55,277 nucleotides of DNA, filler included, from Jimgerdemannia flammicorona (GCA_003990765.1; 3 parts of 3 records of this genome joined end to end with filler, not necessarily neighbours in it); one strand, 5' to 3'; positions 31,844 through 55,277 are shown, counted from the whole stretch's first letter. Program-made: numbers and translations. The notes: generated by a model from the sequence alone, not told the origin.

Positions 31844-31963
31844 CTTATCTTGAATTCTTGCAGGGGTGACTCTTGTAGTCAGGGTAGTTGTTGTGGGGGT
31901 TGTTCATTTTTCAGCTTAAAAGTGAGAGATTCATCTTGAATCACCAGCCAATGAGCACCAAGT

Positions 31964-33445
31964 TGTCATGTAGTGGTCACTGAGTTCTTCAAATATGCCA
32001 GATTCTCTTCAAGGTGTATCTCTTAGACTAACTCAAGTTTGTTATAAGCAAGTTCTTATTGGAGTACCTTCCCAAGGTCTTATAGTCCTCAAACTTCTTA
32101 TCTTTAACTGTCTTGTTATCTCTTAGATTGCTTGTAAGGAAGTGTGTGTATTGTACTGAGAAGACTGACTTTATTTCAGAAGAAATAAGAGGGATATTTA
32201 TACAAAATATAATTCAATGGTTGCTAAGATACAAAGCTAAATATAAATTCCAATAGCTAAAACTACTAAGTTCCAAGGCTGGCATTATTTAGTGTCACAT
32301 CAAAATACCAATTTCGCATTACCTCAGAATGCTGGTGCTGGCATTATTCAGTATTATATAAGAATACCAGTGCTGGCATTATCTAGTGTAACAAAGAACT
32401 TAGAGCAGAAAGTTCAGGATTATGGGGGCTTCATCATCATCATCACTGAAGGAGATGAGATCCACGAATTTGTCGTTTTTGCGTGCTTTGATGTCACGTG
32501 GGATGACATCATCAATGATGTCATCACATTCGGCTGTGGCAGGAAAATTGGAGACAAGGTCTGGATCTCTCCAGTCTATGAGGTTCTCTTCCACAAAATA
32601 AGGAACAAATGTGGGGTCTTGGGGAGATCTAATCTGGATGCTTGGGCCTTGGAATACTGAGATCAATTCTTGCAGAAATTGATCTGGGTTGTCCTGGAGG
32701 ATAGGGTGCCAGAAGTCTTCTACTTCTTCACTGTTGAGGGTGATAGTGGACTGGGCTTCTGTAGCCACCCTGGCTTCTAGTGTATTGATATGGTGGAATG
32801 ATAGGTCTCTGAAATCTGAGACTCTAATATACTCCAAGTTGGGGATCGACCATGGTGTATGCCTGAAGATCTGATGAATCTTCTTAGCTGTCCTTGTTTC
32901 GCATATATCCATGGGAGTGGCATCTTGTAGCTCTTGGGTGCTGGCCTGTGGGAACTCCCGGTAGAGGAGATTTCCTATTTCATACTTCTGCCACATTTGG
33001 AGGCATTCGGTAGCAATGGTGATCCTTGTTTCCATTTCACGGTGGTAGAGGATAAAGTGATAAGGGTCTGCAGTACCCAGGTTGACACTAGGAGTCCTTC
33101 TTGAGTGGGTCCTCATGGCTCTTCTGATGTCTGGGAACATCCTTTCCTCGACTGAGATACCTTGGTGATTCCTTGACCTTGAGGTTTGGCAGGCAGCAGG
33201 CATTTTGTTTGTGGTAAGTCTTTGAGCTATTTTGGGATTGGTGGTTCTTATTGGTTGCTACTACTACAGTTCCTTGATCCTTCTTTTATATTCTTCAGGA
33301 TGCTTGTGCTGTGGTCACAATGACTCACAGTTGGTCATCATTGCTCATCTCATATACCATATGATCTTTTTGTACTCCAATCTGGTGGCTTATAAGGAAA
33401 GGCTATCTCCTGTGCTGATGTCATCATTCTGGGGTCACCATTACA
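31964..33445 (-). repeat. Family-1 5' LTR (1482 bp)
   Basis: Homology with the other units ends exactly at 33445 (...CCATTACA), the base that abuts the PPT in the other copies. GTATAAATA at 32195-32203; AATAAA at 32170-32175. Confidence 0.93.
32400..33203 (-). CDS. LTR(U3)-encoded ORF, 267 aa, unknown function (copy c)
   Basis: Uninterrupted frame inside the 5' LTR. Confidence 0.8.
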   Translation of the reverse strand: MPAACQTSRSRNHQGISVEERMFPDIRRAMRTHSRRTPSVNLGTADPYHFILYHREMETRITIATECLQMWQKYEIGNLLYREFPQASTQELQDATPMDICETRTAKKIHQIFRHTPWSIPNLEYIRVSDFRDLSFHHINTLEARVATEAQSTITLNSEEVEDFWHPILQDNPDQFLQELISVFQGPSIQIRSPQDPTFVPYFVEENLIDWRDPDLVSNFPATAECDDIIDDVIPRDIKARKNDKFVDLISFSDDDDEAPIILNFLL

Positions 33446-36400
33446 ATATATATACATATATCTCTTTGTTACTATAGACTATAATATTTTTATGAAAAAG
33501 AGATTCTTGCCTATATTTAGAGTATATAGTTTATATATTTAAAATATATAACAGTGGGCTTTATAATATTTCTATAGAGATATATCTCTACATTTTCTTT
33601 TCTTAAGTATATAATATATTATTATTATCTAGTTTGATAGATATAAGATATTCAAAAAACTTATATAGAGAGAATTATTTTCTATATACTGTTATAGACT
33701 ATATAGCTCTTGAATCTATGAGCTAGACTTTATTATTATCAGCTATATTGGTATATTTGATGAGCATAAGGTAGATATTACTACTTTTTATTAATTCAAA
33801 AGTTTTTTGCTAACTAGTTATAGATATCAGATTAGTGATAGAACTAATTGTAGATCTTGTGCTTGCAGAACTAGTAGAGCTTACAATAGATGACAGATTG
33901 GTGGATTTGATAGTAAACTATTATATATATATATTGCTTAAATAAACAATATATTAATATTATTGTCAGTTTCAATAGTATTTATATTATTATACTTCTT
34001 TTTGTCATATCTATACTGGCCTTCTATATTTGATTTTATCTTCTCTTTTCTTTGATAGTAATTATTCTATATATATCCATACTTACTATAGTAATGATAA
34101 TTACTATCAAACTTAGCTAAATTATAATTTTGTCTTTACCAATTTTATTCTTACTAGTATTTCTTACAATATTTGTACAATCTGTAGAATGGTCTTTTGT
34201 TATCATCAGAAATATTTCCTTAGTATATTTTTTCATTAATGAGACTCATTATTATATAAGCATAGTTTATAAGCTTGTCACCCTCATATATAGCTATAAT
34301 GATAACATTATATACTTCTGAGAGACCTCTTATAAATACTGCAATTTTGTCTTTATCTTTTGTGTAATCTATGAATATACTATAAGAATTCTCCTAATTC
34401 ACTAAATTATTGATACAATCAGTATATATACTTACAGATATTCTTCTTATTATTAGGCTTTATTTGTAGATTAAATAACTGAGATTTTAGATAAAATTAA
34501 TTTAATATAGATACTTATATATAATGATTAAATATATCTTCTCATTCCATATGAGCTATTATAGTATACATTATATGCTTTATTTATAAGTTTGACAATA
34601 TATATATAATCTTATGTAATACTAAGTTATTTTTTGTAGTATTATAATCTAGAATTTATACTTATAGTTTCATATACTCTATTAAGCTATATTTATCAAA
34701 AAGATTCATTATATGGAATATCTAAATAGTATAATCTTTTCTATCAAAGATTGGGATAGATCTCTTAGCTGAACTTATAAAATAGAAACTGTGTTTTCTA
34801 TTATAATATCTATATCAGTAGCTATATTATATATTGTAATATACTGGCTCAATAGAGACAAATTAAAAGATTGAGAGTTAATATAATTTGGGTAAAGCCC
34901 CTAGTTACTTTATTAAAAAGCAATAAAATATTCTAAAATTCCTGGTATCCTTATTGGTATTTAGTAGTATAATGGTCAAGTCTAGATATAATGGTTAAAT
35001 TCCTTATTAGAAATGGTTCTTAGATATGAGTAGTAATTTATATGATTTTCTTCTTGAGTAGCAGATAATCTTGATATAATATGGTGAATTTGGTGAGATT
35101 TCTTAATAAGTAGATTGGTTGATAACTTGGTTTGGCACTAATTCTTTTATGTTAGTAGACTTCTCAAATAATTTAGATAATAGATAACTTGATAACTTAG
35201 ATATAGATAACTCAATAACTTGGATAGTACAGATTTTCCTAGCAAAGTTACATTAAAGACTGGCTTTATTTGTATGAGGTCATGTTATGGGGTAAGCGTC
35301 ACTATGAAGTTGCATTAGATAGACTAGCTTTATATTGGAGAATATAGGTGGGCTTTTTCTAAATAGCAGGGATTTTTGAGCAAAGTTGCATCAAAGACTA
35401 ACTTTATTTGTATAAACTATATTCACTATAAGGTTGTATTGAATAGACTGACTTTTGGCAAGATAGACTTTACTTGAAAATAGTAACTTTTTTCTTAAGT
35501 AGTGGATCACTCAAATTATAGTAAAGTTCTTTACTCAAACTTAGTAGATTTCGTAGGAAAATATATGACAGATTTCTCTTCTAAATTAGTCTGGCAAGTT
35601 TACCAATCAATCTTTAAATTGAAAAGTAGACTGAAGCCAAAAATGTGTTTGGAATTTTAGACTGTGATTTATTCACTCTTGTCTCTAGAATATTTTATAT
35701 AAGTTAGTTGCTATATAGTTACTGTATAGCTAACTATAGAATGTTATTTATAGCAGGTGTTCAGTGTTCTGGTCTAATACAGTATATTGGTCTGGTACAG
35801 TATACTTGTTCAGTACATATGCTGATCTAGTATAGATAAATATACCCTATCTAGTATTTCTGACTAATTATATAAGTTAGTATAGTAAAGCAGTCTTGAT
35901 TGTCTAGTATACTTATTATGATATATAGCTATTTTATAATTCAGATACTATGATATCTACTGCTCATTATATCAGCCTCTACTAAAGAATGTTCAGCTCT
36001 GGACTATCCTTTAGTCATCATTTCAATATTTATAAGTATTTTTAGTATTAATATCTGAACTATTATCTTTATTTATATCTAAGTCACTTTATTCTATAAG
36101 CTCTTCTTCTTCTGGGAACAGGATTTTGATATAATTAATAATTCTTAAGTAGGTGACTAGACTTATTTCTTATATATTATATTTATAAAGAGAACTGTGT
36201 CTGCATTAATGCTGTAATATTTTATTTATAAAGTATATATAATCAGTCTGCAGCAATGGGGTTTTTCTGTCAGGTCCATGGTGATTCTAATATAGATCTA
36301 CTTGGGAGCTGAGAGCTTCTACAACTATTTATCAATTACATTGTAGACTATAGTTAGTAGACTTATAGAAAGTTTCTGGTCAAGATGATATTCTATTAAT

Positions 36401-36820
36401 AAATTTGAATTTACAGACAGGAGTTTCCATTGGCTTGGCAGAATTGAGATAGAGAAACTGGGAGTGATTGGAATGAACTAACAACAAGGGTCTGGAGACA
36501 TTGGCCAATCCTTTGGTTTATATTATAGAAAGAGATATAGTTTCAGTCAATTAATATATACTAGAGTCCTCAGAGAATATCAATATATACTTCTTATATA
36601 GATGCTTATTCTTTAGATATTGTATACAAGATAAGATCCTTCTCATTTGGGTTTCAGTTTAGTGGCAAGTTATTTCAATTATACTTCTCTAAACTAGTAC
36701 TTGATCTCCAATCTTGATCTTCTGATCTATCTGTTTCTAATTATAGTACTTCTTTTAACTATCTTGGGCCTTGATGATCTGGGCTTAGGCTTGATTATAT
36801 TTTTTTTTTTTTTTTTTTTT

Positions 36821-36920
36821 NNNNNNNNNNNNNNNNNNNNNNNNNNNNNNNNNNNNNNNNNNNNTTAATTAATTAANNNNNNNNNNNNNNNNNNNNNNNN
36901 NNNNNNNNNNNNNNNNNNNN
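36821..36920. other. Assembly gap with artificial linker, poly-T on both sides
   Basis: N-runs around TTAATTAATTAA. Confidence 0.97.
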
Positions 36921-39900
36921 TTTTTTTATAGTCACTTGGACTCCGCCTTTATTACCAGTCTATGAATAAGTATACAACATTACCACCCCCTATCCAATCC
37001 CCATAGGGGGGCCCCTCTCCACCTCCTTCCGAATAAAAACCACCCTTTCACCAACTACTCTAACTCTCCCCCCACTCTGCCCACAAATTTTCTCCACTAA
37101 GTGGCACCTCCGACCACCCTGCAGCCCCCAACCCAGCCACCAGCCTGTTAAGGTGTCTTCCATAAGCCTATGCTACTGCAACAACCAGTCTCCCAAGCTC
37201 TGTCTCCTCCCATCCTCAAAAACAAATAGCCAATGACTGGCCAGCCCCACCCAAATAGCCAAAGCCCAACCCAAAGTAAGCCACTCCTTCCCTATCCCTC
37301 CTACCAATCTATCCCTCAAGTCCTCCCACCTCTCCTGTACTTCATCTCTCCGATGCTGTACCCCCAAACATTCCCCAATTGCCCACCAAAAATCCCCCAA
37401 CACCTCACACTCTCCTAGCCAATATTCAGGTGTCTGTACAAAACCCCCCTCCTGCTCTACATTATGGCACTCCTCACAGTTAAAGCAACCCCCTATGACA
37501 AGGTGCCCCAAGCGAAAGTTGAGCATAACATTTCTCTGCAGCATGTGCCACCAGACCACCCAGTACTTTGGTGGCATCCACTTTCTTACTGCAGCACTCT
37601 AGGTCCAAACACTATACCAATTCCACTCTTCACCAATTCCAACACCTTGCCACCCACTAGGCCACAGATCCTGGCCTGGTCCCCTTTGGCATTCCATTCC
37701 ATCTCCAATGTCGAACTCAATTAAAGGGGCACCACCCAGCAGTATATGATCCCATCTCCACATAGCCGGGTCCTAGTCCTCCTCTCCTTCATTCCCCTGC
37801 CAATGAATACCAATACGGTGTACCCCTTCTGCAATCCCCCACCAAAATCCTTTATATCACAGTTGTTCAGTGTTCTGAAGTCCAACCAATGAGAGGAGAT
37901 CACCAGTTGAGCCCCTTGGTGATAACTGCCTCTCCCAGATCTTCTGTAGCAGAGGAACCCACCCACCTCCTCTCAATTCCACTGCCCTCTTTAGCCACCA
38001 TGCTCTCAAGCAGTGTAACCATTTAGGAAAATCAACCAGCCCAAGACCACCTTGTGCCACTGATAGGGACAAGGTCTCTCAGCCAATCTGACTCCGCCTG
38101 CCAGCCCAAATCCATCCCTTTGCCGACTTCATCAATCTCTTCACCACCCAAGCTGGGAAGTCCAGATGATATGCCAGGTACCATAGCTTTGGCAGCCAAT
38201 GGACATTCAAAATCGAGACCTGCTCTGCCAGAGAAAATTGTCTTTCCCCCCAACTCTGCAGGGCCTCCTCCCAGATTCCAATCCTCTGCTCTCACCAAAG
38301 CCTAGGCAGAACTGACCCATATACTGACAAATATATGCCTAAATACCACACTGCTTCACCAGTAGGGACGATTGTTCCTATCACTTCCCCTCCTACCAGA
38401 CCATTGCCTAGCATTATTATTTCACACTTATGCCAATTCAGCTTAGCTTCAGAGTTCTCCTCATACCACTTGACAGTCTTCTTGAGCTCTTCCACATCAG
38501 CAATCGACCCCAAACCCACCACCATGTCATCTGCAAAGGCCCCAACTTTCCATCCAATGCCAAAGACAGAGAGCCCCGCTATCCTCCTGAATTCTGTCCA
38601 TCAGAGGTTCCAGGGAGAGAGCATACAAAATAGGGGACAGTGGATCCCCCTGGGGCACCCCCCTTCCCAGGGGGAACACTACCCCTCTATGTCCATTACA
38701 CATGAGTGCAGCCCTACTCCCTTCCAGTAGGCTGACCATTGCTGACCGGAATTGGTGTGGAACCCCCATTCTATCCAAAACCTTCACCAGCCAGACTCTT
38801 CACACCCAGTTGTATACCTTCTCCTGGTCCAAGAATACTAGATGCCCATCCAGTCCACAGACCCTTGCCCCTTCGATAATGCCATGTACCCAGGCAGTAC
38901 CATCCCTGATGAGCCAACCACCCACAAATCCCCTCTGCTCAACACCCACGACTTGCTGGGCCACCTTCTGTAGTCATGCCACCACCACCTTAGTCACCAA
39001 CTTCCTGTCCATATCTAGCAACATTATCGGCCGCCAGTTCTTCCAATCCTCCTGCCTTCCTTTGTTTTTATAAAGCAGCATCACCAGCCCAAGGTCCTGC
39101 TCCCCCACCCACCTCCCTGTCTGTAGAATCAGGTCACACAATGCCATCATCTCTCCCATTACCCCTGGGACTCCAACCATTCACTTCCAAAAATCCCAGG
39201 GCAGACCATCCTCCCTAGGTGCCATACCTGATGTTGTTGCAGCAAGAACCTAGTGGATCTCATCCTCCTGAACAGGCATCACCAGGTCACCTAGCCCCTT
39301 GACTTGTGGTGGGTGCCAATCCTCCAATGTTTGTTCAATGGTAGTGGTATCTGCCCCACCCTCTTCCTCACTCCACAATCCACTCTATCTCTCCTTCAGC
39401 AATCCAAGAATGTCCTGCACCCCATGCACCAGTCTACCATCTGAGTCCAGCACCCCTTCCCATCATTGCTGTACCTGCCTCACCCTAAGGGCCCTTATAA
39501 GGTACTTGGAAGGCCTCTCTCCTTCCTCTAGATCCTGCCAGCGAAGCTGTGCTGCCAAGCTCTGGACCCTTGCCTCTTCCTCTTCCCACAGCACCTGTTG
39601 AAGTTCTCCAACCTCCATTTTCACCCTCATTAACCTCTAATCGCCTTCTTCCTCCAACATCTTCAGCCTTGCCCACTCCTCCAGGAGCCACATCAATCTA
39701 GTAGAGGCCCACCACACTCTTCGCCTTCACTGCTTCCCTGCCTCCTTGCCTGCCTCACTCCAGTAAATCTTGGCCATCTCCTTCATCCTCATCCACCGAG
39801 TCCCAACTGAGGCCCCTTCTTGCCACTAGTTCTCCACCCTCAGCTGAATGTCTTTAGTCCACTCATCCCACTGGGTCTTGTCATCTAATAAAGAGGAATT

Positions 39901-42900
39901 GAGGCACCAATGTCCAGGCCCATCCCCACTTCTCCCAAAGCACCCCTGTCCCAAAAGCCCCCAGTGATCCGACCATGAACACCATTCTACCTCCAATGAC
40001 TTCCAAACATCAAGGCCCCAGCAGCTGGCCATCAAAACCCAGTCGATTCTTGTCCCCAGACCCCCCTGCCCAATGTGTATAAACCCTTCTATTCCCCCAG
40101 CACTCCCTGCCAGCATCTACTAGTGCACTCAGTTATTCTACTTCTTCCCATGCCACCAGTCCTCCACTCCTGCTCTCAGCACCTCATCCTCCATCTGTCC
40201 TATCCAACAGTATGTCCCAAACCATATTGAAATCTCTCCCAAGTATATCTACTCCTGCCTCCACAAGTATCCCACTCTCTTGTAAGCCTTTCACCCAATC
40301 TACTCTCTCACCCTGTACCACAGGGTAATAGCAGGAGCCAACTGTAACTGGCTCCCAGCCTGCCCGAATCCACTCACCCCAGACCAGCCTCTCCTCCCAG
40401 CTCCTCACCTCCTGTATCTCTCCTCTACCTTTCCGAACCAAAATCCCAATCTTGCCCTTCCAAATCACTACACCTCCCCATTCCTTTGTCCATTCCATCC
40501 TATCAGAATCATCTTCACACTGGACATCCTGCAAGAGGAAGAGATCAGCCTCCAATCCCTTCATCCAAGTAAAAATGTTCCTATGTCGAGTAGCGCTCCG
40601 TAACCCATTTACATTTAAAGAAAAAATGTTGGTTGTACTGTTCATATTGGAAGATGTTATGTTGTCAATCAATCTCTACTGCTCCATGCTCATCCCCTCC
40701 TGCGCTGTGTCCAGATTATGTTCCACAGCCACCTCCTCCTCTTCTGCCCTCTGAGCCTCTAATCCAGCCAACAGTTCTTTTTTTTTTTTTTATAGTCACT
40801 TGGACTCCCTTCCTTTATTAATATCCATCTATCCCATATAATTACAATGATCCCACCCCCTATCTAATCCCCTGAGGGGGCCCCCCTCCCCCTACCCTTT
40901 CCCTGTGAAAGACCACTTTGTCGAACACAATCCCCACCCTCCCACCACTCTGCTCACAGATCTTCATCACCAAACCATGACGTCGTCCTCCCTGAGGACC
41001 CCAACCCACCCACCATCTGGTCAGCAGATCCCCCACCAGCTCCTCCCACCTTGACACCTTCTCATACAGCCCCAACCGCTGCCCCTCCTCAAATACAAAA
41101 AGCCAATGGCCCACCAGTCCCACCCATACTGCTAACACCCATCCTACAGTGAGCCAACTATCCCCCACCCCACCTACAAGCCGGGATCTTAAGTCCTCCC
41201 AGCAACCCCCCTCCTCTACCTGCTGATGCCCCACACCCAGTCTATCTCCTACCTCAGCCCAAAATTCCCCCAGGACCTCACACTCTCCCAGCCAATGTTC
41301 TGGTATCTGTACATGACCCCCAGCCTGCCCAACATCATAACACTCCTTGCAGTCAAATTGTCCACCCTCTACTAAATGCCCCGAGTGGAAATTCAGCATG
41401 ACATTCCTCCACAACATTCGCCACCATACCACCCAGAGCTTGGGAGGAAGCCACCTCCATACCTCAGCACTCCAAGACCAGATGCCTGCCTAGTCCCACT
41501 CCTCACCAATTCCAACCGCCTGCCAGCTACTTGGCCAAAGGTCCTGGCCAAGCCCCCACTGACACTCCACTCCCTCCCCAATATCAAATGCAGCCAGTGG
41601 AGCACCCCCCAGGAGCAGTCCATCCCAATGCCACATATTAGGCCCCCACGCTGCCTCCCCCTCATTACTCTGCCATCGCAGGCCAATTCGGTGTGCTCCA
41701 TCAGCCACTCCCCACCAAAAGCCCTTGAACTGCAGCCTCTGAACTCCATTCAGCCCCACCAAAGAGAGCAGATCTCCAGAGGACCCTCAGGGGGATGTTT
41801 GCATCTCTCATACCTTCTGCAGCAGAGGCACCCAATCTCTGCCCTGCAATTCCACAGCTCTCTTCAACCACCAGGCTCTCAAGCAGTGCAGCCTCTTAGG
41901 GAAATCCACCAGGCCAAGACCTCCCCTGACTACCGGCCTTGCAAGAGTATCCCAACTGACCTGGGACCTCCTCCCCACCCAAATCCAATTCCTAGCCACC
42001 TTTGTCAGCTTCTTCACCACCCACGCTGGGAAGTCAAGGTGATATGCTACATACCACAGCTTTGGGAACCAATATACATTCAGGATTGACACCTGCCCTG
42101 CTAGAGAGATATGGCGGCCTCCCCATCCTCGAAGGGCCTCCCCCCAACTATTCACCTTGCCCTCCCACTACACTCGTGGTAAGACAGAACCATATACAGA
42201 GAGGAAGATGTCCAGATACCGCACCACCTCACCAGTAGGGACAATTGTTCCAATGACATCCCCACCCACTAGCCCATTCTCTAGCACCATTGTCTCACAC
42301 TTATGCCAGTTGAGTTTTGCCCCTGAGTGAGCCTCATACCATTCCACAGTCTCCTGAAGTGCCACTACATCTGCTACAGACCTAAGTCCCACTACCATAT
42401 TATCAGCAAAGGCCCTCACCTTCCACACTATACCATATATAGAGAGCTCTGCTACCTTCCGACGAATCCTATCTATCAACAGCTCCAGTGACAGGGCATA
42501 GAGAATCAGAGATAGAGGGTCCCCCTGAGGTACTCCTCTTCCTAAGGGAAATGCCCTCCTGCAGTGACCATTACACATCAGAGCTGCCTGACTACTTTCC
42601 AGCAGACTCAACATAGAGGCCCTAAATGTTGGGGGAACACCAATCCGGTCCAACACCTTTCCCAGCCACACTCACCATACATGGTCATAGGCCTTCTCTT
42701 GGTCCAGAAAGACCAACCTTCCATCCAGTCCACAGGCCCAGGCCCCTTCAATAACACCATGAACTCATGCAGTCCCATCTCTTATTAGCCTGCCCCCAAC
42801 AAAGCCCCTCTGCTCCTCCCCCAGCACCTGTTGGGCAACCTTCTGCAGCCTTGCAACAATCACCTTAGTCACCATCTTCCTGTCCATATCCAGAAGCATG

Positions 42901-45362
42901 ATCAGCCGCCAGTTCTTCCAGTCCTCCCTCCTTCCCTTGTCTTTGTACAGTAAGGCCACCAGCCCCAGGTCCTGCTCTCCAACCCACTCACTACTCCAAA
43001 GGACATGGTCACAAAGATCAGCCATCTCGCCCAACACTCCGGGGACATTTACCATCTTCTTCCAGAAGTCCCAAGGCAATCCATCCTCCCCTGGCACCAT
43101 CCCAAGCTTAGTTGCTGCCAGGACACTCCGGATCTCCTCCCCCTGCACCGGTAAGATCAAGTCCCCCAGTCTAGCAACCTGCGGTGGCCCCCACTCATCT
43201 AGTATATTCACAATCTCTGCCTCATCTGTACCTCCTTCTCCCTCACTCCACAAACCCTGCCATCTCTCCTTCAAGACCCCCAGGATTTGTTGTGTGCTAT
43301 GAACCATGTCTCCATCAGCATCCAGGACCCCATCCCTCCAGCCAACAGTTCATTCATCTCTCTATCGGCCTTCTCCTCGAACTCCTCTCAGTACTCTATG
43401 CAGGCCTCCTGCCAGAGTTGCAGTTCATGATGCTTGTTCCAGAAGTATTCAGCCCTTTCTCCAGCAACGACTGCCATCTCTGCCTCCCTTTCCTTATCCA
43501 CCTCATACCCTTCCTCCTCCAGGTACACTGCAAGAATTTCTGCCTTCAGTGCCTTCATTACTTCATCCCCCTGCAGTATCCCTGCCCAATGCTCATCACT
43601 CATCACTTGCAAGTCCACCTCCCCCAGCTCTTCCGCCACCAGGTTGTTCATCATCTGGTACATCCAAAGTAAGTTCCCCACCTCTTTCCCTCCTGGAGTC
43701 ACCAGCCTCCCTCCATCCAACATTGTGGTGTCAGCTCCAGTGCTTGCAGTCTCATCCCATACCTCTAGGACATCCACCAGTTCCTCCTCGCCAGCCTCCA
43801 CCACCTGTCCTCCATATGCCACCTCTGGAACTCCAAATTGTACCCTCTGGGCCCCTTGCATTGGCACATCTTCTACCACCCTGTTTCAGGAAGCTGGGCT
43901 ATGTTGGACAAGAGGGGTAGGGGTAGGAGAGCCCTCCCAGTCCTCCTCCCAAACCTCCAGCATACCATCAGCATATAGGTCCTTACTATGCTTTGCCTTA
44001 TCCTCCCCTGCCTCCTTCTTGTCCTTCTCCTCCCCTTCGTCAGTCCAGACACTTGCTTTGGCTCTCCCTATGCCCTTCATCTTGCTCGCATCTTCCAGTG
44101 GCCTGTTATCCAACTTGGCCAGCAGCTCCTTCTGTCTCTTACACCCTTGAGCCCTTTCCCACTGCTCCTTAGTCACTCGAATCCACTTTCCATCCACTAC
44201 CTCCAAATGCATCGCCTCCACAAATACCTCCCAAGCCTTCGCTCGCCTCTCTACAGCACTACTCAGCTCTTCTAGTGCTTCCAATAGATCCTCCTCCTCC
44301 TCCTCACTACCCTTCACCCTTGTCACCTTGCACAGAATCACTCCCCAGACCATTACTGAAGGCCAGTCCCTCACCTTCCCAGTAGCTTCCTTCCCAGCCA
44401 GCCAAATCCTCACATCTATGTTGCCCATCCTGAGTGAGGTCCCTTCCCAGATCCTGAATCTGATATCCACTACCTCTCCATACTCTGCTATGAAATCCTC
44501 AACTCTCTTTCTCATCTCCAATGCCATCACCATCGGCACTCCTTTCACTAGCAGCTGGACCACCCTGGGATCCCACTTCAGGCAATGCGCCATCGGAATA
44601 CACACCTCCCCAACCACCAATCCAACCTTCAGTACCTCCTCCAGTGGCGCCACCTCCTCAAAACCAACCTCCACTCCCTCCAGTCCCTTCAAGAACTTCA
44701 CAGATGCAGCTCCTGCCACCTGCTTAGCGATGAGCCCCAGTACCATTTTTACCGTCACCACTAAACCCTGGAAACACATAGTGACTGCAAATTCCGAGAT
44801 CAACTTCTTGAGTAACGGCACCACTGCCAGTCCTGTTACACTATCTGCCAGGTCCCCAGGCCTTGTGCCCTTCCCACTGCTTGGCTCACCATCAGCAGTC
44901 CCATCTAGATTTTTTTCCAGATTGCCCATCACACCTCCATCAGCAGTCCCTGCCCCAGCTGCTACCCCCCTAGCTCCACCCCTATGGCCCTCCAGAGAGG
45001 CCCCCCCATGAGGTTGCTGCCTAGATGCCCTCACTGGCACCTTCCCCTCCCTCAGCCAGCTCTCCAGTCCAGCCCCCTGCTGATCCCCCTTCACCTTCTC
45101 CGCAAAGCTCACTCTGCTGGTTCCTTGACCCCCAGCTCTGCCCCCTCCTCCACCACATCCACCCACCAGCAGGTCTCTCATGCTTCCTTCCAAGCCAGGG
45201 CCTCTCCCCACTTGTTGTCATTTGAATGCTCCAGGGCCACCCTGCCCAGTACGCACCTCAGGATGCTCATTGGTTGCTATGAAACTAGTAGATTGTCTCC
45301 AGAAACTGTGTCAAAAGTGTTGCCAAAGGATTGTGTAACCTGAATGTTACCAGAGAAAGATG
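36921..45362 (-). mobile_element. Full-length degenerate L1/Tx1-like LINE 'A' (ORF1 about 45220-43352 plus 40777-40676; ORF2 about 40645-36990)
   Basis: APE endonuclease 'IFSLNVNGL...FLLQD...DFN...RIDWVL...SDH', RT 'WRPIMLL...GVPQGDPLSP', C-terminal 'C..C...TPE.W.GEC', AATAAA plus poly(A), conserved 5' terminus. Confidence 0.92.
40778..43336 (-). mobile_element. 5'-truncated LINE 'B' nested in ORF1 of LINE A
   Basis: Poly-T at 40778-40791; perfect 15-bp TSD TCCAGCCAACAGTTC at 40763-40777 and 43337-43351; RT 'GVPQGDPLS...AFADN'. Confidence 0.93.
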
Positions 45363-45373
45363 CTCTTGAGGAT

Positions 45374-48300
45374 GAACCTTCTGTAGTCTCACAACAATCA
45401 CCTTAGTCACCAACTTTCTGTCCATATCCAGAAGCATGATCAGCCTCTAGTTCTTCCAGTTCTCCCTCCTCCCCTTATTTTTGTATAATAAGGCCACCAG
45501 CCCCAAGTTCTGCTCGCTAACCCACTCGCCATTCAAAAGAACATGGTCATAGAGGGCAGCCATCTCTCCTAACACTCCAGGAACCTTTGCCATCTTCTTC
45601 CAGAAGTCCCAAGGTAACCCATCCTCTCCTGGCACTGCCCCTAGCTTAGTTGCCACAAGGACTCTCTGGATCTCCTCCTCTTGGACTGGTAAGATCAAAT
45701 CACCTAGTTCTTCTACTTGCAGTAGCTCCCACTCCTCCAGTGTATCTTCAATTGCCTCCTCATCAGCCCCCTCTTCCTCCTTACTCTACAAACCCCTTCA
45801 TTTCTCCTTCAGTACACCCAAGATCTACTGCATGCTATGTACTATATCTCCCTCAGCATCCAAGACCCTATCCCATCGGTGGTGCACCCTCCTAGTTTAG
45901 AGGAGCCTTGACAGGTACCTAGTGGGCCACTCTCTCTCCTCAAGCCCCTGCCACTGTAGTCTGGTAGCCATTCCTTTCATATGAATCTCCTCCTCTACTT
46001 GCAATAATTGTTACAGCTCTATCACCTCTAATTTCACCTGCTCCAACCTCTAATCCTCCACCTCTTCAGAATGAAGCAACTCGGCCCACTCCATCTGCAA
46101 TCTAATCAGCCTATTAGAAGCACACCATACTTACTTCCTTCTCAGCCTCCCAGCCTCCCTACTAGCTCCTCCTCAATAAATCCTCACAGCCTCCTTCAAC
46201 CTCATCCACTGGATATCCACAGAAGATCCCTCATATATCCAGGTGGTAATCTTCACTTGGACATCCTCTATCCATGGGTCCCACAACCCCTTCTCAGCCA
46301 GCAGGGAGGAGTTAAGGTGCTAATGTCCAGGTCTATCTCCACTCCCCCCAAACTGTCTCTACCCCAATAGCTCCCAGTGATTGGACCAAGGGCACCACTC
46401 CACCTTTCAAGTCCTCCAAATATCAGCACCCCAACATTTGGCCATCAGAATCCAGTCAATCCTTGTATCCAGTCCATTTACCCAGTGTGTATAGACCCTT
46501 CTGTCACCCCACTGTGTTCTGCCCATATCTCCTAAGGAGCTAAGGTTCTCCATCTTCTCCAACTTATCCAGTCCACTACTCCTCCCACCTGCACTCCTTC
46601 CTCCATCAGTTCTATCCAGCTGTGGATCCCACATCATATTAAAGTTACCTCCCAGAACATTGACACCTTCCTCCAAGAAGATACCCTCCTCCAACAGATC
46701 CCTAATCTACTCAATCTGCTCACCCCTAACTGCAGGGCAGTAGCATGAGCCAACTCTCACCAATTCCCACCCAGGTTGGTGCCATTCTCCCCAGACCAAA
46801 CAGTCCCCCCAGCTCTGAATTCTGCCCAAGTCCCCTCTACCCTTCCTCACCAGAATTGCCACTTTGCCATTTCAAGCAGTAGCCCCTCCCCATTCTCTAG
46901 TCCACTCCACCTGATCTTTCTCATCCTCACACCATATATCCTACAGTAAGAAGAGATCAGCCTCCAATCCCTTAAGCTAAGTAAAAATGTTCCTACACTG
47001 CCCCAATCCCCATAACCCATTCACATTTAGAGAAAAAATGTTAGTTGTACTATTCATAAGGAATAATGTTGTTTATCAATCATGCCCTCTACAAATCTGC
47101 ATTCAGCTCCTCCCATGCCAAGTCCAAGTTATGTTCTGCAGCTAGTGCCTTCTCTTCAGTCACCCATGCCTCCAACCCAGCCAGAAGTTCCACCATTGCT
47201 CCATCTTTCTTTTCCTCAAAGTCTTTCCAGTATTCCAGATATGCCTCCTGCCAGAGTTGTAACCCATGATGCTCTGCCCAACAATAGGCAGCCTGCTTAT
47301 CAGCAACAGTTGCCAACTCAGCCTCCCTCACCTCATCCACTATATATCCCTCCTCCTCCTTGAAAATCACAAGTATCTCTGCCTTCAATGCCTCTACCAC
47401 TCCATCCCCATGCAGAATCTATACCCAATGCTCCTCTGGCATCACACGTAGGTCAACTTCTCTCAACTCCTCAGCTACAAGGTTATCCATCATCTTGCTC
47501 ATCCACAGCAGGATCCCTACCTCCTTCCCTCCAGGAATCCCTGGCTGCCCTGCATCCAGCATCATGGTATCAGCTCCCACACTAGCAGCCTCATCCCACT
47601 CCTCCTCTGGGACATCCACCAGCTCATCCTCACCAACTACCACTATCTGGCCCCCTTTGGTCACATCTGGGACCCCAAAGTGAACTTGCTGGGCCCCCTG
47701 CATCAGCACATCCTCCACTTCCCCTCTCTTTCCAACTGGGCCATTTCTGATGAGGGGGGGGGGGGGGGGGGGGTGCTATCCAAATCCTCCTCCCAAACTT
47801 CAAATGTACCATCAGCATAGGAATCCTTACCCAGCACCATCCCAGCCCCTTTCTTGTTCGCCTCCACCTCCTCTCCTCCTTTGCTAGTCCAGACACTGGC
47901 TTCAACACCTCCAGACTCCTCAGCCCCAATCAATTTCTTCTTCACTCCTCCTTTCATACTTACCAAAAGCTCCCTCTGCCTCTTGTACCCCTGGGCCTGC
48001 TCCCACTGCCTCCTGTCAGTACAGATACATTTCCCATCTACAACCTCCAGATGCATCGACTCTTTATACAGCTTCCAGGCTTTTGCCCTCCTCTCCACAG
48101 TACCACTCAACTCCTCCAGAGTCTCCAACAGATCCTCCTCCTCCTCTTCACTCCCTTTTACCCTCGACATCTTATAGACAAAAGCCCCCCACATCAGTAC
48201 TGAGGGCCAGTCACTTATCTTCTCAGTGGCCTCTCTCCTCACCAGCTGCATCCTGACATTGATATCACCTATTCTGAATGTTATCCCCTCCCACATCTGG

Positions 48301-49205
48301 AAGCCAATGTCTACCACATCACCATACTCTACCATCACCTTCTCCACCCTCCTCCTAGTCTCCTCCTTTGTCACCATAGGCATCCCTCTCACCAGAAGCT
48401 GCACCACCCTGGGGTCCCACCTCAAGTACCACACTATGGGGACCACCATTTCCCCAACCACTACTCCAGTCCTCAGGGCCTCATCCAGTGGGCCCGCCTC
48501 CTCAAAGCCCACCTCAACCCCCTCCAGACTCTTCAGGGACTTCACTGAGGCTGCCCTAGCCACCTGCTTCAAAATAAGCCCCAGGATCATCCTCACCATC
48601 ACCACCAAGCCCCAAAAGCACAAGGTAGCTACAAACTCCAAGATCGACTTCTTGAGCAATGGGGCCACTGCTAGCCCCATTACACTATCTGCCAGGTCCC
48701 CCTTCTGTATTGAGAACCCCTGCCCCATCTGGCCATCAGCCATCACATCTCTTTTTTTTTCCTAATTCCCCATCACACTCCCATCAACAGTCACACCCCC
48801 AGCTACAGCTTCTCCAGCCTCTATGCTCACATCTCCCACCTGAGGGCCACTCCTCCTTCTGACACTAGCCTTGCCCTTCCCCTCAGCAGCACCAACCCTG
48901 GTTCCAGCAGGCCATCCACTTACCTTCACCTTGTCAGCAAAGCTGGAGAGACCAGGCCTTCCCTCAGATCCACCTAACACTGGTCCTCCTCCAGAGCCTT
49001 TGCCACCCTTCGACCCTCCAAAAGCCCCCATCTCTAATCTATAACCTCTCCCTATATGCTGCCAGCCAAAAGCCCTAGGTCCACCTGACCCAGTACGCCC
49101 TTCAGAACTCTTGCTCGATGATATTTTTATAGTACCTTTTCTCCGAGTTGTATTGAAAACTGTTGCTTGAAGTTTGTATAATGTGAATTGTACAGGAGAA
49201 AGGTG
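45374..49205 (-). mobile_element. LINE 'C': 5' end, ORF1, endonuclease and RT start, cut at the 5' end of LINE A
   Basis: ORF1 (about 49120-47089) aligns with LINE A ORF1. Also 'GGNFN...TRIDWIL' and 'PGEDGLPWDFWKK...WKN'. Confidence 0.9.
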
Positions 49206-50967
49206 GACTGAGCAAAGATCTACTTGATATTTTATTATTAACTATTTTATAGAAAATATGACCTATATAGTAAGTAATACTTACAATAGCTCTGAAGAAT
49301 AAGAAGTAAACTGAAGAAATATGACAACTCTCTAAAGTAAATTATAAACTTACTTAAAATATTTACAATCATATATCAGAGTTAACAATAGTTACAGATC
49401 AATTGCACAATAGTCTTATTAGTTTAAAAACATTATCTGATAAGATGACAAATAATACAAAGTAGAGATATGATCATATAGTACTTTTATACTATATAAA
49501 TGATAATTATTATTACTTTGAAGGTATTTATATATTGAGTTAATTGATAAATTTAGTTAATATATATATAATATATTTAAATTATTAATTTATATAATAT
49601 TTAATAATAAGTACTAATAAAGTTATCAAAATAATAATCCTGATATATATTATTTACCTAGTAAATACAATGTGGTCAAGATGTATATACTATATATATA
49701 TAGTAGATATTGCCTATCTTATCTGGAGGATAATACATGAAAATGTACATATTCAATCTACTATTATATTGATATATATATATTTAGATATCTGTAAAGC
49801 AGTAATTACCTATATATTATCAGTATATAGATGTTATAGGTTTATTTATCTTTATTATTATCTTAGTAATATATTATATTAGAATATTTATTTTCACCAT
49901 CATGAGGCAACTATTGAAGCTTGGCTTTGAAGCTGGTCTAATGATGATATCTGAAGATAACTATCTGAATAGGGTTCAGAAGCTAGTCTATGAGATTTAT
50001 CTCAATAGTTTTTACTATATATTTATAATATCTATTATATTTCTGTTAGCAAATAAATAATCAGTGATAATGGAATATAATATTATATTAGATTAATAAA
50101 TTATATATTTGAGCTCTATAATATTATATATTAGATATCTTTTTAAAATAAGTATAGAGCTAAATATGATCAGAATACTTTAATTTTGCTTCTATATATT
50201 TAGAATATAAAATTATCAATATTTTATATAAATTTCAAATTTTGGCTAGCTCAAAATTGTCATTCATTGTAATGGTAATTCAGCTTTGTAGAAAGTCCCT
50301 TTTAGCTAATATCTTTACTATTAAGTAGCAATTACAAATTATGGCTCTATATATTATATTTCAAATATCTCTCTACATAATTACAGAGCTGCATTGTATG
50401 AGGTACAAATAATATCTGTATATATTATATATCAGATAGATCTCTTCAATTTTACTATTTATATATTGTGGTGTTGGGTTTGTATCCCTAGTTGCTTCTG
50501 GCATGGCTCAATGTGCCACTTGGTGGAGCACATGGTATATGACTGAGTGCATTTGCGATGGTTATGGGTCGATGGTCACGTGATCGGTTTGTCTAATTCA
50601 TATGATAATTGATAGCAGGAGTTTGATTGTTCGTTGGCTCAGGACGTCGATGGCTCAATTGTTTAGTGGAAAAGGGTGGTGAAAAACTTAGCAGCAACGG
50701 TCTTGATGGTCTTGCTCTTTATGCGGTCAATTAAAGTGGTCTGTGGCACAGTAGGTCAGGGAAAACAGAGGTTGATGGCTTGCTCATCTATCTTGGTTAA
50801 CTTGAAAGGTTCCTGGCAGTCATTCGGGTCTTTGGCAGTGGTCTTGTATCCTTTGGCTGGGTAACTTGAATTCCTTGAGTTCTTTAGCTATGTTGCCAGG
50901 GTCTTGAATCTCGAATGGCAGTCTCAAATAGCAGCGGTTGGTGGTTGGGTAATGTTTTCTTTATTTC

Positions 50968-51435
50968 TGTGGCAAGAGAAATTCTTTAACTCAAACCTTG
51001 AGTGATCCGTTACTCTAGTTATTTTGTTCTTGGAATTCTGTTCTCTTAGAGGCAGTGTGTTTTCTCTGTAAAACTGTCTGACTTGCAGGTGGTCTGGGGT
51101 CTTGAATCCTTTTCATGGTGGCAAAACTTAAAATTCGGGCAGCAAGAGAAATTCCTTAACTCAAACTTCTGAGCGATCTGTTGCTCTAGGTTGTTATCTT
51201 GTTCTCAGAATTTTCCGGTCTCTTGGAGGCAGTGGTTTCTTTGTAAACTAGAACTGACTTGCGGGCAGTCTGTGGTCTTGAATCCTTTTCGTGGTGGCAA
51301 AACTTGAAATTCAGGTGGCAAGAGAAATTCCTTAACTCAAACTTCTGAGCAATCCATTGCTCTAGGTTGTTATCTTGTTCTCAGAATTTTCTGGTCTCTT
51401 GGAGGCAGTGGTTTCTTTGTAAACTAGAACTGACT
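50968..51435. repeat. About 2.7 tandem copies of a 170-176-bp unit downstream of the family-2 TATA box
   Basis: GCAAGAGAAATTCYTTAACTCAAAC recurs at about 50972, 51142 and 51318. Confidence 0.9.
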
Positions 51436-51614
51436 GACTGAGGTTTTATTCACTCTAAGATATAGGGTTATTTATACAAATTTGCTAGCTATAGGGGGGG
51501 GCTAAGGTATACTATGTTGTGGTGGACTTCACTATGCTATTGGCTTGCACAATATGAAGGGCTGACTTGCTGACACAGATGGATATGGATATGACGATTG
51601 TTGCCAGAAATGGT

Positions 51615-51830
51615 TGTGGAGGGTAGCAATGCTGGATTCAGACTTACTGACAAAATGCTGAAAATGGTAGCACTGGATAGCAACACTGGAAACAGTTATA
51701 CTGGGTAGCAATGCTGGATTCAGACTTGCTGACAAAACGCTGAAAACGGTGGCACTGGATAGCAATGCTGGAAATGGTTGTGCTGAGTAGCAATACTGGA
51801 TTCAGACTTACTGACAAAACGTTGAAATGA
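51615..51830. repeat. 82-bp tandem repeats with GCTGG subrepeats between the U3 ORF and the TATA box
   Basis: GCAATRCTGGATTCAGACTTRCTGACAAAA at about 51626, 51708 and 51790. Confidence 0.9.
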
Positions 51831-51866
51831 AGGCTGCACAATTCTCACAGCTGACGGGTGGTACTT

Positions 51867-52853
51867 CTAGAGGGAATAGTACCCTTCATCCATGGCAGGC
51901 AAATCTTGCTGGGTTAAGATTTCTTCTTCATCATACCTCTCCTCAAAAGGAGAAAGCACCGGCCAAGAGGTGAGGGGGTAGAAAAGTGACCAGTCATCTT
52001 CAACAACATTCTCCAACCCTTGAACAGCTTGAATGCAGACAGAGGACTGGTAGACTCTCTGTTGCTCCTCTTCTTCTTCTGAAGACTTGTCAGTTTCAGT
52101 GTCAGAGGGGGTTTCTTTAGGGGCAGAGTCTTGGAGTTCTTGGGCTTCCTCTTCAAAGACAGGGACCTCTTGGGCTTCTTCTTGGTTCGGTTCCCAAATG
52201 ATGAGATGTGAATTGTGGCTGGCAGGGTGGTGGGTGGTTGGGGTAGCTCTAATGGGTGCTTCTATGGTAATGGGCAGTCCTTCAAATATCTCCATAAGAC
52301 TCATTAGGTGACCTTGATAGTTGTCTCGGAGTGGGGTGATGTAGAAACCTGGCTGAGTAGGTTCAGTTTGTTGGCTTCCTATGGTGATGCAGTTGCTGCC
52401 AATAGAGTTGGCTACTTCAGATTCTATCCAGTCAGCATCTTCAGTTGAAAGGTGGAAGAGGCTGCCAGCCATTACTCCTTGCAAGTGTGCTATGGCCCAG
52501 GAGATGTGGCAGAATATCTGATGAACGTGGAGAGCTCTCTTGATCAGCTGGCTGGTGGTTATCAATTCAGTAATAAGGTCTTCCTGGTCATCTTTTTGAG
52601 TCTCATTGCAAAGGTGGTGTCCGATTTCATAGTCATACCAGAGGGTCATTTGTTCAGTAGTGTCTTTGAGCTGTTGGATCATTATATACCGGTAGTTGAT
52701 GAAGTGTCCAAGGTCCTTGGTGTAGAAGTTCAAGCATTCAGAAGTATCTGGGCACCAGATGGCCTTCTTGATAGCTTCAAAGATCAGGGTCTTTGGGCCA
52801 GGCAAAGGGGTAGAGCAGCGGGAGGTCTGGTTGGATCAGTAAATGAGAGGCAT
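51867..52853 (-). CDS. Family-2 LTR(U3)-encoded ORF, about 328 codons, homologous to the family-1 LTR ORF
   Basis: Open from 52835 to 51867. One TGA (52836-52838, plausibly CGA>TGA) separates this from an ATG at 52853, giving 'MPLIY*SNQTSR', comparable to family-1 'MPAAHQTSR'. Confidence 0.75.
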
Positions 52854-53385
52854 TGTGTGGTAGGTACTTGGTTCTTTGGTGCCGATCCCTGAGGTGGAGT
52901 ATGGTTCCTTAAATAATGTGGTCTTCATTTTGGCTCGGATCATCTTGTCTTCTTTTGGGATGATCATCTAATGGGTCAGGCTGTCTATTTGATTGTCACG
53001 CCATTATGTCATCTGATCTTAGCAGTCACCAGTACTCCGTTGTCAATTGCATTCATCACATCTGCCTCTTGCAAAATTAGAGCCATCCTCAGCAGTAAAA
53101 ATTACACAGAGTTGGGTAGTCTTAACTCCAGAGACAAGCAGAATGTCAGCGCATTTGTGAGGACTGGCCATCCTTGTCTAGGGCGAGGGCTCCCATAGTC
53201 ACAGCTAGGGGTTCAAACCTATCAGAAATACTATTTCTTGTAATCTGAGGCAATTTCTTAGTAATAATGTCTGTCATGTGGATGGGCTTGAGTCTGGTTC
53301 CAACATTGTTAGCTTTCTTGAGTTCCGAGTGAAATGTCTGTTGTATCTCCAATGGAGATGATACAGACAGAGTGAACAGGATTGT

Positions 53386-55277
53386 TCAAATGCATTTTAC
53401 TTCTCTTGAGTAGTAGAGTCTTATGCGGTTGCGGTGTATCTTGGTCTTGAGTATAACTCCATCCAAGATCTTGAGTTGATAAGTGTGGTTCGGGAATACT
53501 TGGTGTATGAGATAGGGGCCTTCCCATTTTGGTTCAAGCTTGGCACTCCAATTTCCTTCTATGATGGTACGGTACACCAGAACCTTTTGTCCAATAAGTA
53601 GGGGTTCGAGGTCAGCTTTGCAGTTGTAGTACCTCTTTTGTCATTCTTATGCCTTGGCAATAAATTCTCGTGCTTGCTGGCATATATCGTGTAACCGGGT
53701 AATCTCTTCTGTGACTTGTTTTGACAGATCTAGCTGGACTGGTTCAGTAGGATCATGTGCTTCTCAGCCATATACCAAATAGAAGGGGGTCTGTTGGGTA
53801 GCGGTTGCCTTAGAGGTACAGATGCTGAACAGAATTGCCAGTAGATAGATATCCCAGTTTAGTTGATCTCTGGTTCTACTGAGACCTCGCTTGATGGTCT
53901 GGTTCATTCGTTCAGTGAGTCTATTTGCCTGTGGGTGGTAGGCTGTTGTTGGTCATAGCTTGATCTTGAAGTTGCTCGCAAAGGTCTTCATGGCTTAGTT
54001 GATGAATTCTCGGCCTTGGTCTGTAATAATTTCCTTGGGCACACCATGGTGGCTGAAAATTTCATCATACAGGATCCCAATAATTGTCTGGGCATCGGCA
54101 GTCTCAATGGCAAAGACTTCAGGCCATTTTGTCAGATGGTCTTCGATAGTGAGGATGTAGTGTCTTCCTTGGCTAGTTACTGGTAGGGGTCCAATAATGT
54201 CTATTCCCAGTCTTTGAAAGGCTCCAGCTGGTGCTGCAATTGGTATTAATGGTGCTCTGTCAGTAGGCTTTTGTTAGTATCTTTGGCAGGTATCACATTG
54301 TTGAATGTACATTGAAATTTGTTTTCTTATCTTAGGCCACCAGTATCACTTCTTGATTCTTGCAATTGTGGTGCCAATTCCTCGGTGTGCATTTTGGTCA
54401 TAATTTGTTATCAGGATCTTCAATATTTCTTCTTCTCTTGGAACTCAGGTGTACTGCTCTCCTTCTACTCTCCAAAGTTCACCATTGCCTTCTTGGAATT
54501 TCTTGAAATTCCTTTGGATAAACAACTTGTGGGCTGGTTGAATTCCTTTCTTAAAGCTTCTATGGTGCAGACTCCAGGTGAGGGCGAGGCGCAATTCTTG
54601 GTTCATTTGGGTGAGCAGGAAGCAGCCTTCTCTTGTGGGGGCTCCTTCCCTTCTTGTTGGTTTTACGGGATTCTTGACAGAGTATCAACATTGGAATTTT
54701 TAGCACCTTTCTTGTAGACAATAGTGAACTGATATTCTTACAGAGACATGATCCATCTAGCAAAGATTCCTGAGGGCTCTGGCTTGTTGAACAACCATTG
54801 TAGAGCTTGATGGTCAGTGATGAGAGCAAATCTCTTTCCCAAGAGATAGTATCAGAAGTGGTCCACAGCCCAAACTACTGCTAGACATTCTAACTTAGTG
54901 GCTCCATAGTTCGCTTGAGTTTCATTTGTGGCCTTGCTAGCATATTCGATTACATGCTCCCTCTTCCAATCATCTTGCTGAGACAGAATTGATCCAAGTT
55001 CTAAGGCTGAGGCATTAGTTGCCAGGATGAATGGTTTGCCAAAGTCTGGTCACACCAGAACAGGGGCTTCGGTAAGGGCCTTCTTGAGTAGGTCAAATGA
55101 CTTTTGTTGTCCTTCTTTCCAGTAGAATGGTTGGTCCTTCTTGGAGATATCTCAGAGAGGTGCTGCCTTATCTGAAAACCTTGGGATGAATCGTTGATAG
55201 TAGGATACCAGCATAAGGAAAGATAGGGTCTCCTTTGCTGAGGTCGGGGTTGGGTAGTTCTTGACTTTCTCCACCTT
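53386..55277 (-). pseudogene. Family-2 pol remnant (RT end, RNase H, integrase)
   Basis: Many stops; ALTEAPVL, NYGATKLECLAVVWAV, GIDIIGPLP and GPY motifs remain readable. Confidence 0.9.

Follow-up and report, generated by a model that had tools for sequence, protein, structure and literature searches.

Does the open reading frame (ORF) at positions 51867 to 52853 of the minus strand represent a gene that was conserved as protein, and does it belong to a retrotransposon's long terminal repeat (LTR)? The window analysed here, a stretch of DNA of 55,277 nt, harbours two divergent families of Ty3/Gypsy elements. The initial annotation had regarded this frame of the second family (family 2) as the counterpart of an ORF in the U3 region of the first (family 1), and as an old, selected accessory gene that defines a Gypsy clade. 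Our analysis leads us to the view that 51867-52853 is probably a slightly damaged copy of a selected, self-promoted LTR accessory gene of a small, fungal-type Ty3/Gypsy clade.

The translations of 51867-52835 (family 2) and 18821-19687 (family 1), both on the minus strand, were compared. All six peptide pairs that had been quoted for the two families are present, and a single colinear BLASTP alignment spans them, with 54 identities in 178 positions (30%), 51% positives, 7 gaps and an E value of 8e-21. A shuffle test, suggested along with the annotation, led to the same result: the Smith-Waterman score of 201 was reached by none of 1000 shuffled sequences, which scored 35.5 ± 5.6 with a maximum of 65, so that the real score has a z value of about 30. 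Both proteins end in acidic tails as described, with net charges of −14 (P0006, family 1) and −26 (P0007, family 2). The LTR DNA is otherwise dissimilar, again in agreement with the annotation, since blastn of the two inferred LTRs (word size 7, E ≤ 1) leaves one match of 17 nt, at the second TATA box. Between the families the proportion of synonymous differences (pS) is 0.71-0.77 and thus saturated, the proportion of nonsynonymous differences (pN) is 0.42-0.53, and about half of the identical residues are encoded by differing codons (34 of 72, 60 of 109 and 45 of 84). These data support the view that the two ORFs are homologous and were kept as protein while the DNA diverged to saturation.

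The family-2 ORF is placed 3′ of the integrase on the same strand, and the element leaves the window at its right edge:

51867 to 52853, minus strand: putatively LTR-borne ORF of family 2, 329 codons including the stop.
53386 to 55277, minus strand: remnant of family-2 pol with RNase H and integrase, extending past the window edge.
53146 to 53385, minus strand: stretch following the integrase, whose end (LALDKDGQSSQMR and stop) has a conserved counterpart in the first 87 nt of the metagenome contig L001.

The frame starts with ATG at 52853-52851, is interrupted by TGA at 52838-52836 (codon 6) and then stays open for 322 codons up to TAG at 51869-51867. In P0007, an intact family-2 relative that is 74% identical and starts with MPPTRRSNQTSR, codon 6 encodes Arg. 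Strictly, the family-2 ORF of the window is a pseudogene with one nonsense change. In the adjoining pol path of 630 codons, 13 stops are premature and the frame shifts at least once, compared to a single stop in 328 codons of the ORF. Among codons that are one transition away from a stop, 13 of pol were hit and 58 are intact; the corresponding numbers for the ORF are 1 and 32 (Fisher p 0.035). The frame of more than 310 codons beside a stop-rich pol, as stated in the annotation, is therefore confirmed; the contrast between the two is real, although only modestly significant, and suggests that the ORF was better kept than the adjoining pol.

Changes in the window copy are also unevenly distributed. 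Compared to a family-2 consensus built from six family-2 proteins, it shows differences at 4 of 50 cross-family conserved columns and at 39 of 153 other columns (Fisher p 0.009). The four changes at conserved columns comprise R>C in two cases, P>S and P>L, and together with the CGA>TGA nonsense change they resemble late C>T damage.

A profile of the window copies retrieved 7 proteins from a collection of 5.8 billion clusters, and exhaustive reading of a library of 1.84 billion gave 8 representatives of the ORF family. Adding cluster members and a search with a broader profile brought the number of relatives to 24 (P0005-P0028), each of them on a contig from JGI/IMG or ENA. About five subfamilies can be told apart, namely family 1, family 2, family 3 (P0012, P0024 and L001), P0013, and P0025/P0016. 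All full-length members carry MP at the N-terminus, and the blocks LN..T.DLGHF, W.EYEIG, HQIFRH.P, LS...LE..VA, L.DN and F.GPPI are shared. Among metagenome contigs, 176 pattern matches included one relative (L001), and among viral contigs 47 pattern matches included none. Longer or fused forms were not found among 7847 candidates, which is weak evidence. LTRs are routinely masked as non-coding, and this may explain why the relatives are only metagenome calls. Since further subfamilies exist, and in view of the homology, the protein conservation and the Gypsy context, it is reasonable to regard the ORF as an old accessory gene that belongs to a Gypsy clade.

The position within the LTR is most clearly seen in family 1, which spans 18746-33445 on the minus strand in the order LTR-internal-LTR-internal-LTR, corresponding to two elements with a common middle LTR. 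By blastn the three repeat copies cover 18746-19872, 25130-26258 and 32325-33445, are 91-92% identical, and each contain a frame of about 270 codons. The internal regions between the three repeat blocks measure about 5.3 and 6.1 kb, and each is in several ORF pieces. The point at which the three-copy similarity stops (18746/25130/32325) is not the LTR end: it falls within an array of 35-nt repeats, and copies B and C extend this array further. The features of family 1 are as follows:

31964 to 33445, minus strand: LTR copy C, the 5′ LTR (1482 nt), starting with TGTAATGG at 33445 and ending with CATGACA at 31964.
33203 to 32400, minus strand: ORF of copy C, intact, 267 codons.
33290 to 33283, minus strand: TATA-like sequence TATAAAAG of copy C.
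32393 to 32271, minus strand: 35-nt repeats of copy C.
32202 to 32195 and 32175 to 32170, minus strand: TATAAATA and AATAAA of copy C.
Directly after the end of copy C (31964), minus strand: TTGGTGCTCATTGG, resembling a primer-binding site (PBS), then the gag ATG near 31907.
24727 to 26258, minus strand: LTR copy B, common to both tandem elements.
About 26016 to 25225, minus strand: ORF of copy B, with ATG changed to ATA and about 25 last residues that depart from copies A and C.
18746 to 19872, minus strand: LTR copy A, the 3′ LTR, cut inside the 35-nt array at 18746.
19630 to 18821, minus strand: ORF of copy A, intact, 269 codons.

Like copy C, copies A and B begin with TGTAATGG, in their case after the purine run AGGAGGAAGA, and a TGG-type PBS-like site follows copies B and C. 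In copy C about 200 nt lie between AATAAA and the CATGACA end, and the outer side of this copy is an AT-rich flank. Contigs of sequencing run X1 depart from the window at 31963 and at 33438/33454, which provides weak support for the ends of copy C; this run contains 0.07 of the sampled words, its library type is only presumed, and it was not used for expression or copy number. The X1 contigs show 85-99% likeness to pieces of 31869-33500 (LTR and leader), and gag-pol is almost uncovered by them.

Family 1 thus has direct LTRs with TG..CA ends, a polypurine tract (PPT) and a PBS, and its pol, on the minus strand, shows the domain order of Ty3/Gypsy elements (aspartyl protease, dUTPase, RVT_1, RT_RNaseH, Integrase_H2C2, rve). 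In the window, family 2 retains RT_RNaseH followed by rve only, and one LTR with motif-based boundaries. The family-1 dUTPase between protease and reverse transcriptase (RT) was detected at 29072-30307 and 21979-23376 on the minus strand (Pfam E 6.5e-29 and 1.7e-20). The family-1 ORF occupies positions 243-1046 of the LTR of about 1482 nt and lies wholly inside it, upstream of TATAAATA (1244) and AATAAA (1271). Two of the three LTR copies keep an intact frame, and gag-pol is in several pieces.

For family 2, the following arrangement would represent the corresponding LTR:

50467 to 53060, minus strand: putative 3′ LTR of about 2.59 kb, starting with TGTGATG and ending with CACCACA.
52909 to 52915, minus strand: TATA-like sequence TATTTAA, 62 nt upstream of the ATG.
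51607 to 51827, minus strand: about 2.7 copies of an 82-nt tandem repeat, between the ORF stop and the second TATA.
51445 to 51476, minus strand: TATAAATA at 51476-51469 and AATAAA at 51450-51445.
50969 to 51429, minus strand: about 2.6 copies of a 176-nt tandem repeat, 86-93% identical, on the R/U5 side downstream of AATAAA.

The TGTGATG start at 53060 directly follows the purine run AAGAGGCAGA (53070-53061), and the CACCACA end at 50467 adjoins an AT-rich flank, so that the termini TGTGATG and TGTGGTG form an inverted repeat. The order of features is colinear in both LTRs, with the first TATA box (TATA1) at LTR position 156 in family 1 and 146 in family 2, the ATG at 243 and 208, the stop at 1046 and 1194, the second TATA box (TATA2) at 1244 and 1585, and AATAAA at 1271 and 1611. 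The 82-nt repeats match each other at offsets of 82 and 164 nt with 89% identity and are candidate enhancer repeats, and 51445-51476 is a candidate for the genomic RNA promoter together with the shared poly(A) signal. Part of the 176-nt repeat is a copy of the GTCAGTTCTAGTTTACAAAG segment found behind the family-2 poly(A) signal. As the gene lies upstream of the tandem repeats, TATAAATA and AATAAA, its location would correspond to U3. The U3 location given in the annotation therefore holds for family 1, where the ORF lies inside a three-copy repeat; for family 2 it depends on the proposed LTR start, and for family 3 it is doubtful.

Upstream of the ATG the families share further motifs. The distance from the TATA-like box to the ATG is 87 nt in family 1 (TATAAAAG), about 80 nt in L001 (the same 10-mer) and 62 nt in family 2 (TATTTAA). 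The sequence TATAAAAGAA is found at the same place in families 1 and 3, and an exact match of 20 nt, AAAGACTTACCACAAACAAA, abuts the ATG in both (E 3e-6). The 20 nt before the ATG are closely similar in family 2, in which the 5′ untranslated region (5′ UTR) ends with GTACCTACCACACA-ATG-CCT. Considering that third codon positions of the family-1 and family-3 genes are only 37% identical, the identical 20 nt indicate a constrained 5′ UTR. The TATA1 boxes would act as promoter of the ORF. Scans for bacterial promoters and terminators and for tRNAs gave nothing relevant.

Since the gene has a TATA-like box of its own, 60-90 nt ahead of the ATG, and a 5′ UTR that is conserved, each LTR would be a self-contained transcription unit, and this would apply to 5′, 3′ and solo LTRs alike. 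A monocistronic ORF mRNA would start from TATA1 and end at the poly(A) signal of the LTR, and the genomic RNA of the element would start from TATA2, just behind the ORF unit. In this arrangement the gene follows the integrase and lies wholly inside the LTR, in family 1 as observed and in family 2 as the motifs suggest.

The product comprises 250-340 aa, with a mildly basic N-terminus, an all-helical core of about 150-200 aa and a disordered acidic tail. AlphaFold models of a family-2 and a family-1 query both show seven helices from residue ~18 to ~150 with the rest disordered; the mean predicted local distance difference test (pLDDT) values are 52.9 and 63.7, with 60-96 in the core. The N-terminal 40 residues have a net charge of +1 to +8. 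The tails have net charges of −12 to −26 and contain 20-33% Asp+Glu with interspersed F, L, I and W, and the motifs DLISF, DLIIF, DLINF, DLITF and VLNF recur in the tails of three families.

No transmembrane or other hydrophobic segment was found in six full-length members, in which 19-residue Kyte-Doolittle maxima were 0.50-1.09. A signal peptide or membrane anchor, as in the Env-like ORF3 of other elements, is likewise missing in these six members (hydropathy ≤1.09), and hydropathy, Pfam and PDB sequence searches revealed neither a type II membrane protein of the Sag type nor similarity to Sag. In the absence of a hydrophobic segment and of any family or fold match, the protein is not Env-like or Sag-like. 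Pfam-A searches with 22 aligned members gave no family at E 0.01 (best E 0.044, in 2 members), a sequence profile had no matches in PDB at E ≤ 1, and Foldseek against PDB (two runs) and BFVD returned nothing at E ≤ 0.001. VIA-align against 48,161 chains reached best Z values of 3.3 and 3.8 in two runs, with none of at least 5. Helix-turn-helix proteins of the ParB/VirB/KorB, TetR and MarR types appeared at Z 2.9-3.7, which is noise level, and were rejected as evidence. The ESM Atlas was uninformative (best feature score 0.83, TM-score ≤0.33).

Two circumstantial features would fit a transcriptional activator: the acidic, hydrophobic tail and the tandem repeats upstream of TATA2. In such a mechanism, the acidic tail would activate transcription from the downstream repeats and TATA2 of the same LTR, or shield it from silencing. 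By analogy to Tax and Tas, which act on U3 repeats, we tentatively propose that the ORF product may be a nuclear regulator.

With almost the same probability, the protein may be a silencing antagonist or an accessory factor of replication. The protein could counteract defence based on RNA interference (RNAi), DNA methylation or a process resembling repeat-induced point mutation (RIP), or it could serve replication as partner of Gag or integrase, in nuclear entry or in targeting. Its fast evolution, with 30% identity between families 1 and 2 compared to 30-53% for pol segments, fits a conflict with the host, and the DLISF, DLIIF, DLINF and DLITF motifs of the tail could be docking motifs. No similarity to known suppressors was seen, and hhalign against the Gag of the element itself gave a probability of 0.2%, which argues against such a role; we regard it as possible, with some reservation. 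A further observation in its favour is the RIP-like destruction of a related copy in the surrounding genome:

1 to 660, plus strand: relic of the 3′ part of a related LTR, in which repeats, TATA and AATAAA are followed, in the same order as in the other LTRs, by a leader, a PBS-like site and the start of gag.

The relic shows heavy C>T and G>A mutation, contains a TATAAATA/AATAAA pair at 362-416, and can be aligned, though weakly, as far as the final codons of the ORF. Its TpA/ApT value is 1.27 and its (CpA+TpG)/(ApC+GpT) value 0.69, compared to 0.5-0.8 and 1.4-1.7 for the intact elements, and of 21 C>T and G>A changes in the two stretches that align best, 14 affect CpA or TpG. Changes of C>T and G>A with a bias for CpA/TpG are the pattern of RIP. 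The decay of the relic would point to a RIP-competent fungus and speak against Mucoromycota, and the suggestion to search this group first does not fit these changes and the RIP-type indices. The region 1-729 (plus strand) has 21% G+C and is ended by a 69-nt poly-T run at 661-729. The AT-rich blocks at 5001-9000 and 33500-37000 have borderline RIP indices.

Several points weigh against our reading of 51867-52853 as a selected, self-promoted LTR gene. The window copy is broken at codon 6, and the difference in stop density between ORF and pol reaches Fisher p values of only 0.035-0.043. In family 1, copy B has lost the ATG, and its C-terminus is unlike those of copies A and C. For the three LTR copies of family 1, the ratio of nonsynonymous to synonymous substitution rates (dN/dS) lies at 0.42-0.81 and the codon positions show no significant bias, which gives no sign of selection after insertion; we see the constraint as having acted during the history of the family, not after insertion. 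The family-2 LTR boundary at 53060 is based on motifs, as only one LTR lies in the window, and transcription of the ORF is deduced from TATA, 5′ UTR and poly(A) motifs, that is, from sequence only. The family is tiny, with about 24 sequences versus 5.8 billion clusters and none from a named genome, and the function finds no family or fold match, the best Z of 3.8 being noise for helical proteins. Finally, the single contig that represents the layout of family 3 differs from family 1 right behind the ORF.

This contig, L001 (1535 nt), begins with the tail that follows the integrase (41 nt with 80% identity between its start and the end of 53146-53385, E 2e-5), which ties family 3 to Gypsy elements. 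In L001 the stop codon is directly followed by AAGGAGGGAGGAT-TGTAATAAG, a PPT-like run and TGTAAT (within 1252-1535), which resembles the PPT and LTR start CAGGAGGAAGA-TGTAATGG of family 1. The family-3 ORF may therefore be internal and not in the LTR: if TGTAATAAG is the LTR start, the ORF would be internal there, and its inclusion in the family-1 LTR would result from a shift of the priming site. A 28-nt motif on both sides of the L001 ORF (170-197 and within 1252-1535, 86% identical) could point to regulatory sites in common or to an LTR boundary that differs. These observations support an alternative in which an internal third ORF between pol and the PPT is the ancestral and usual position, the ORF being LTR-borne in family 1 only, through a priming site that moved upstream; family 2 of the window would then carry the ORF outside the LTR, and its proposed LTR start at 53060 indeed comes from a single LTR, the 5′ LTR lying beyond the window. 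However, no purine run with TG follows the stop codon in family 2, and TGTGATG after AAGAGGCAGA at 53060 forms the inverted repeat with CACCACA at 50467. The family-2 layout is also colinear with the family-1 LTR, and weak alignment of the relic at 1-660 (a 5′ LTR with leader and gag start behind it) extends to the final ORF codons. For these reasons we consider the alternative unlikely.

Our proposal can also be combined with this shift. The LTR would then be an autonomous cassette of promoter, ORF and poly(A) signal that encodes a nuclear factor which activates the downstream promoter of the element itself or shields it from silencing, and the PPT contrast between families 3 and 1 would be a trace of the path by which an internal gene entered the LTR as the plus-strand priming site shifted. 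We consider this combined version rather doubtful. With its seat in the LTR, the gene would be copied along with each new insertion and persist in solo LTRs.

A cellular gene that was captured by the elements, or domesticated from them, and kept for the host would also account for one stop in 328 codons versus 13 in 630 in pol (p ~0.04) and for two of three intact family-1 LTR copies beside split gag-pol. It is nevertheless very improbable, since no homolog occurs in named genomes or in UniRef or NCBI sources, all matches being from JGI/IMG or ENA, no longer or fused forms were found, all copies with visible context (window and L001) sit in Gypsy elements, and codon 6 of the window copy is a stop. 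An open frame that arose by chance in LTR DNA and yields no protein, to which the missing known domain might point, can practically be dismissed in view of the significant protein similarity across families despite saturated synonymous sites, the intact frames in five subfamilies and the changes that avoid conserved columns.

Other repeats occur in the neighbourhood. At 18350-18745 (minus strand), LTR copy A is truncated by a GC-rich element resembling long interspersed nuclear elements (LINE), which abuts it with its 5′ end; the ORF1 start of this element resembles 48762-49241, and an N gap containing the spacer ttaattaattaa follows. On the minus strand of 37000-49241 there are 2-3 diverged tandem copies of a non-LTR retrotransposon, 70-85% identical at a spacing of ~3.85 kb. 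This element encodes an APE endonuclease and RT, has ~52% G+C and a GC skew of −0.35 to −0.51, and lies in a background of 22-30% G+C.

An accessory ORF in U3 is known from the sag gene in the LTR of mouse mammary tumor virus (MMTV), whose product Sag is a type II membrane glycoprotein. Both systems have a complete ORF of about 300 codons inside the U3 of an LTR longer than 1 kb, so that the integrated element carries it at either end and it can be expressed apart from gag-pol. Sag, however, is a membrane glycoprotein of a vertebrate betaretrovirus, whereas the protein described here lacks a hydrophobic segment and belongs to fungal-type Ty3/Gypsy elements. Tax of human T-cell leukaemia virus (HTLV) acts on 21-bp repeats, and Tas/Bel1 of foamy virus is likewise a transactivator that uses U3 repeats; their genes are located outside the LTR and expressed by splicing. 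They share with the ORF the position of an accessory gene 3′ of pol, an acidic hydrophobic tail as in activation domains, and tandem repeats upstream of the LTR TATA (35 nt in family 1, 82 nt in family 2). In contrast to Tax and Tas, to which it has no homology, the ORF has its own TATA-like box, and a role as activator is hypothetical.

Additional frames are also known from Gypsy elements, among them the env-like ORF3 of Athila and errantiviruses. Elements of bdelloid rotifers carry captured ORFs (PMC5408684), and maps of fungal and plant chromoviruses show an 'add. ORF' of unknown function (PMC2864245). All of these resemble the present ORF in being added 3′ of pol. As far as these descriptions go, they lie beside gag/pol and none is placed in the LTR, whereas the family-1 ORF is wholly within it, and no sequence relationship to any named extra-ORF family was found. 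Gypsy elements with dUTPase have been described from fungi (Postia PosPlaTy3, Phanerochaete and Tuber Tmt1 elements), and the dUTPase between protease and RT in family 1 is in one of the described positions (PMC2864245). An LTR-borne ORF is not mentioned in the sections consulted, and the comparison is by description only. Our literature search, with subscription papers (e.g., Riccioni et al. 2008 on Tmt1) and supplements outside its scope, found no ORF inside a fungal Gypsy LTR; the 'LTR ORF' matches that it gave were MMTV sag or polyprotein ORFs in Talaromyces. A U3 ORF (MMTV sag) and extra ORFs behind pol in several Gypsy lineages are thus already known, and an orphan LTR gene in a fungal-type Gypsy element is apparently new.

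Accessory genes set complex retroviruses apart from simple retrotransposons. To our knowledge LTR-borne accessory genes are rare outside complex retroviruses, MMTV sag being the textbook rarity. If our reading is true, microbial retrotransposons also evolve regulatory or counter-defence genes. A small protein, a promoter of its own and, at a distance of 100-400 nt, candidate target repeats would offer an experimental handle, by which one could address how the element controls its transcription or escapes genome defence. Should the LTR indeed be a cassette for a factor acting on its own downstream promoter, the dose of this factor would track the history of the family in the genome.

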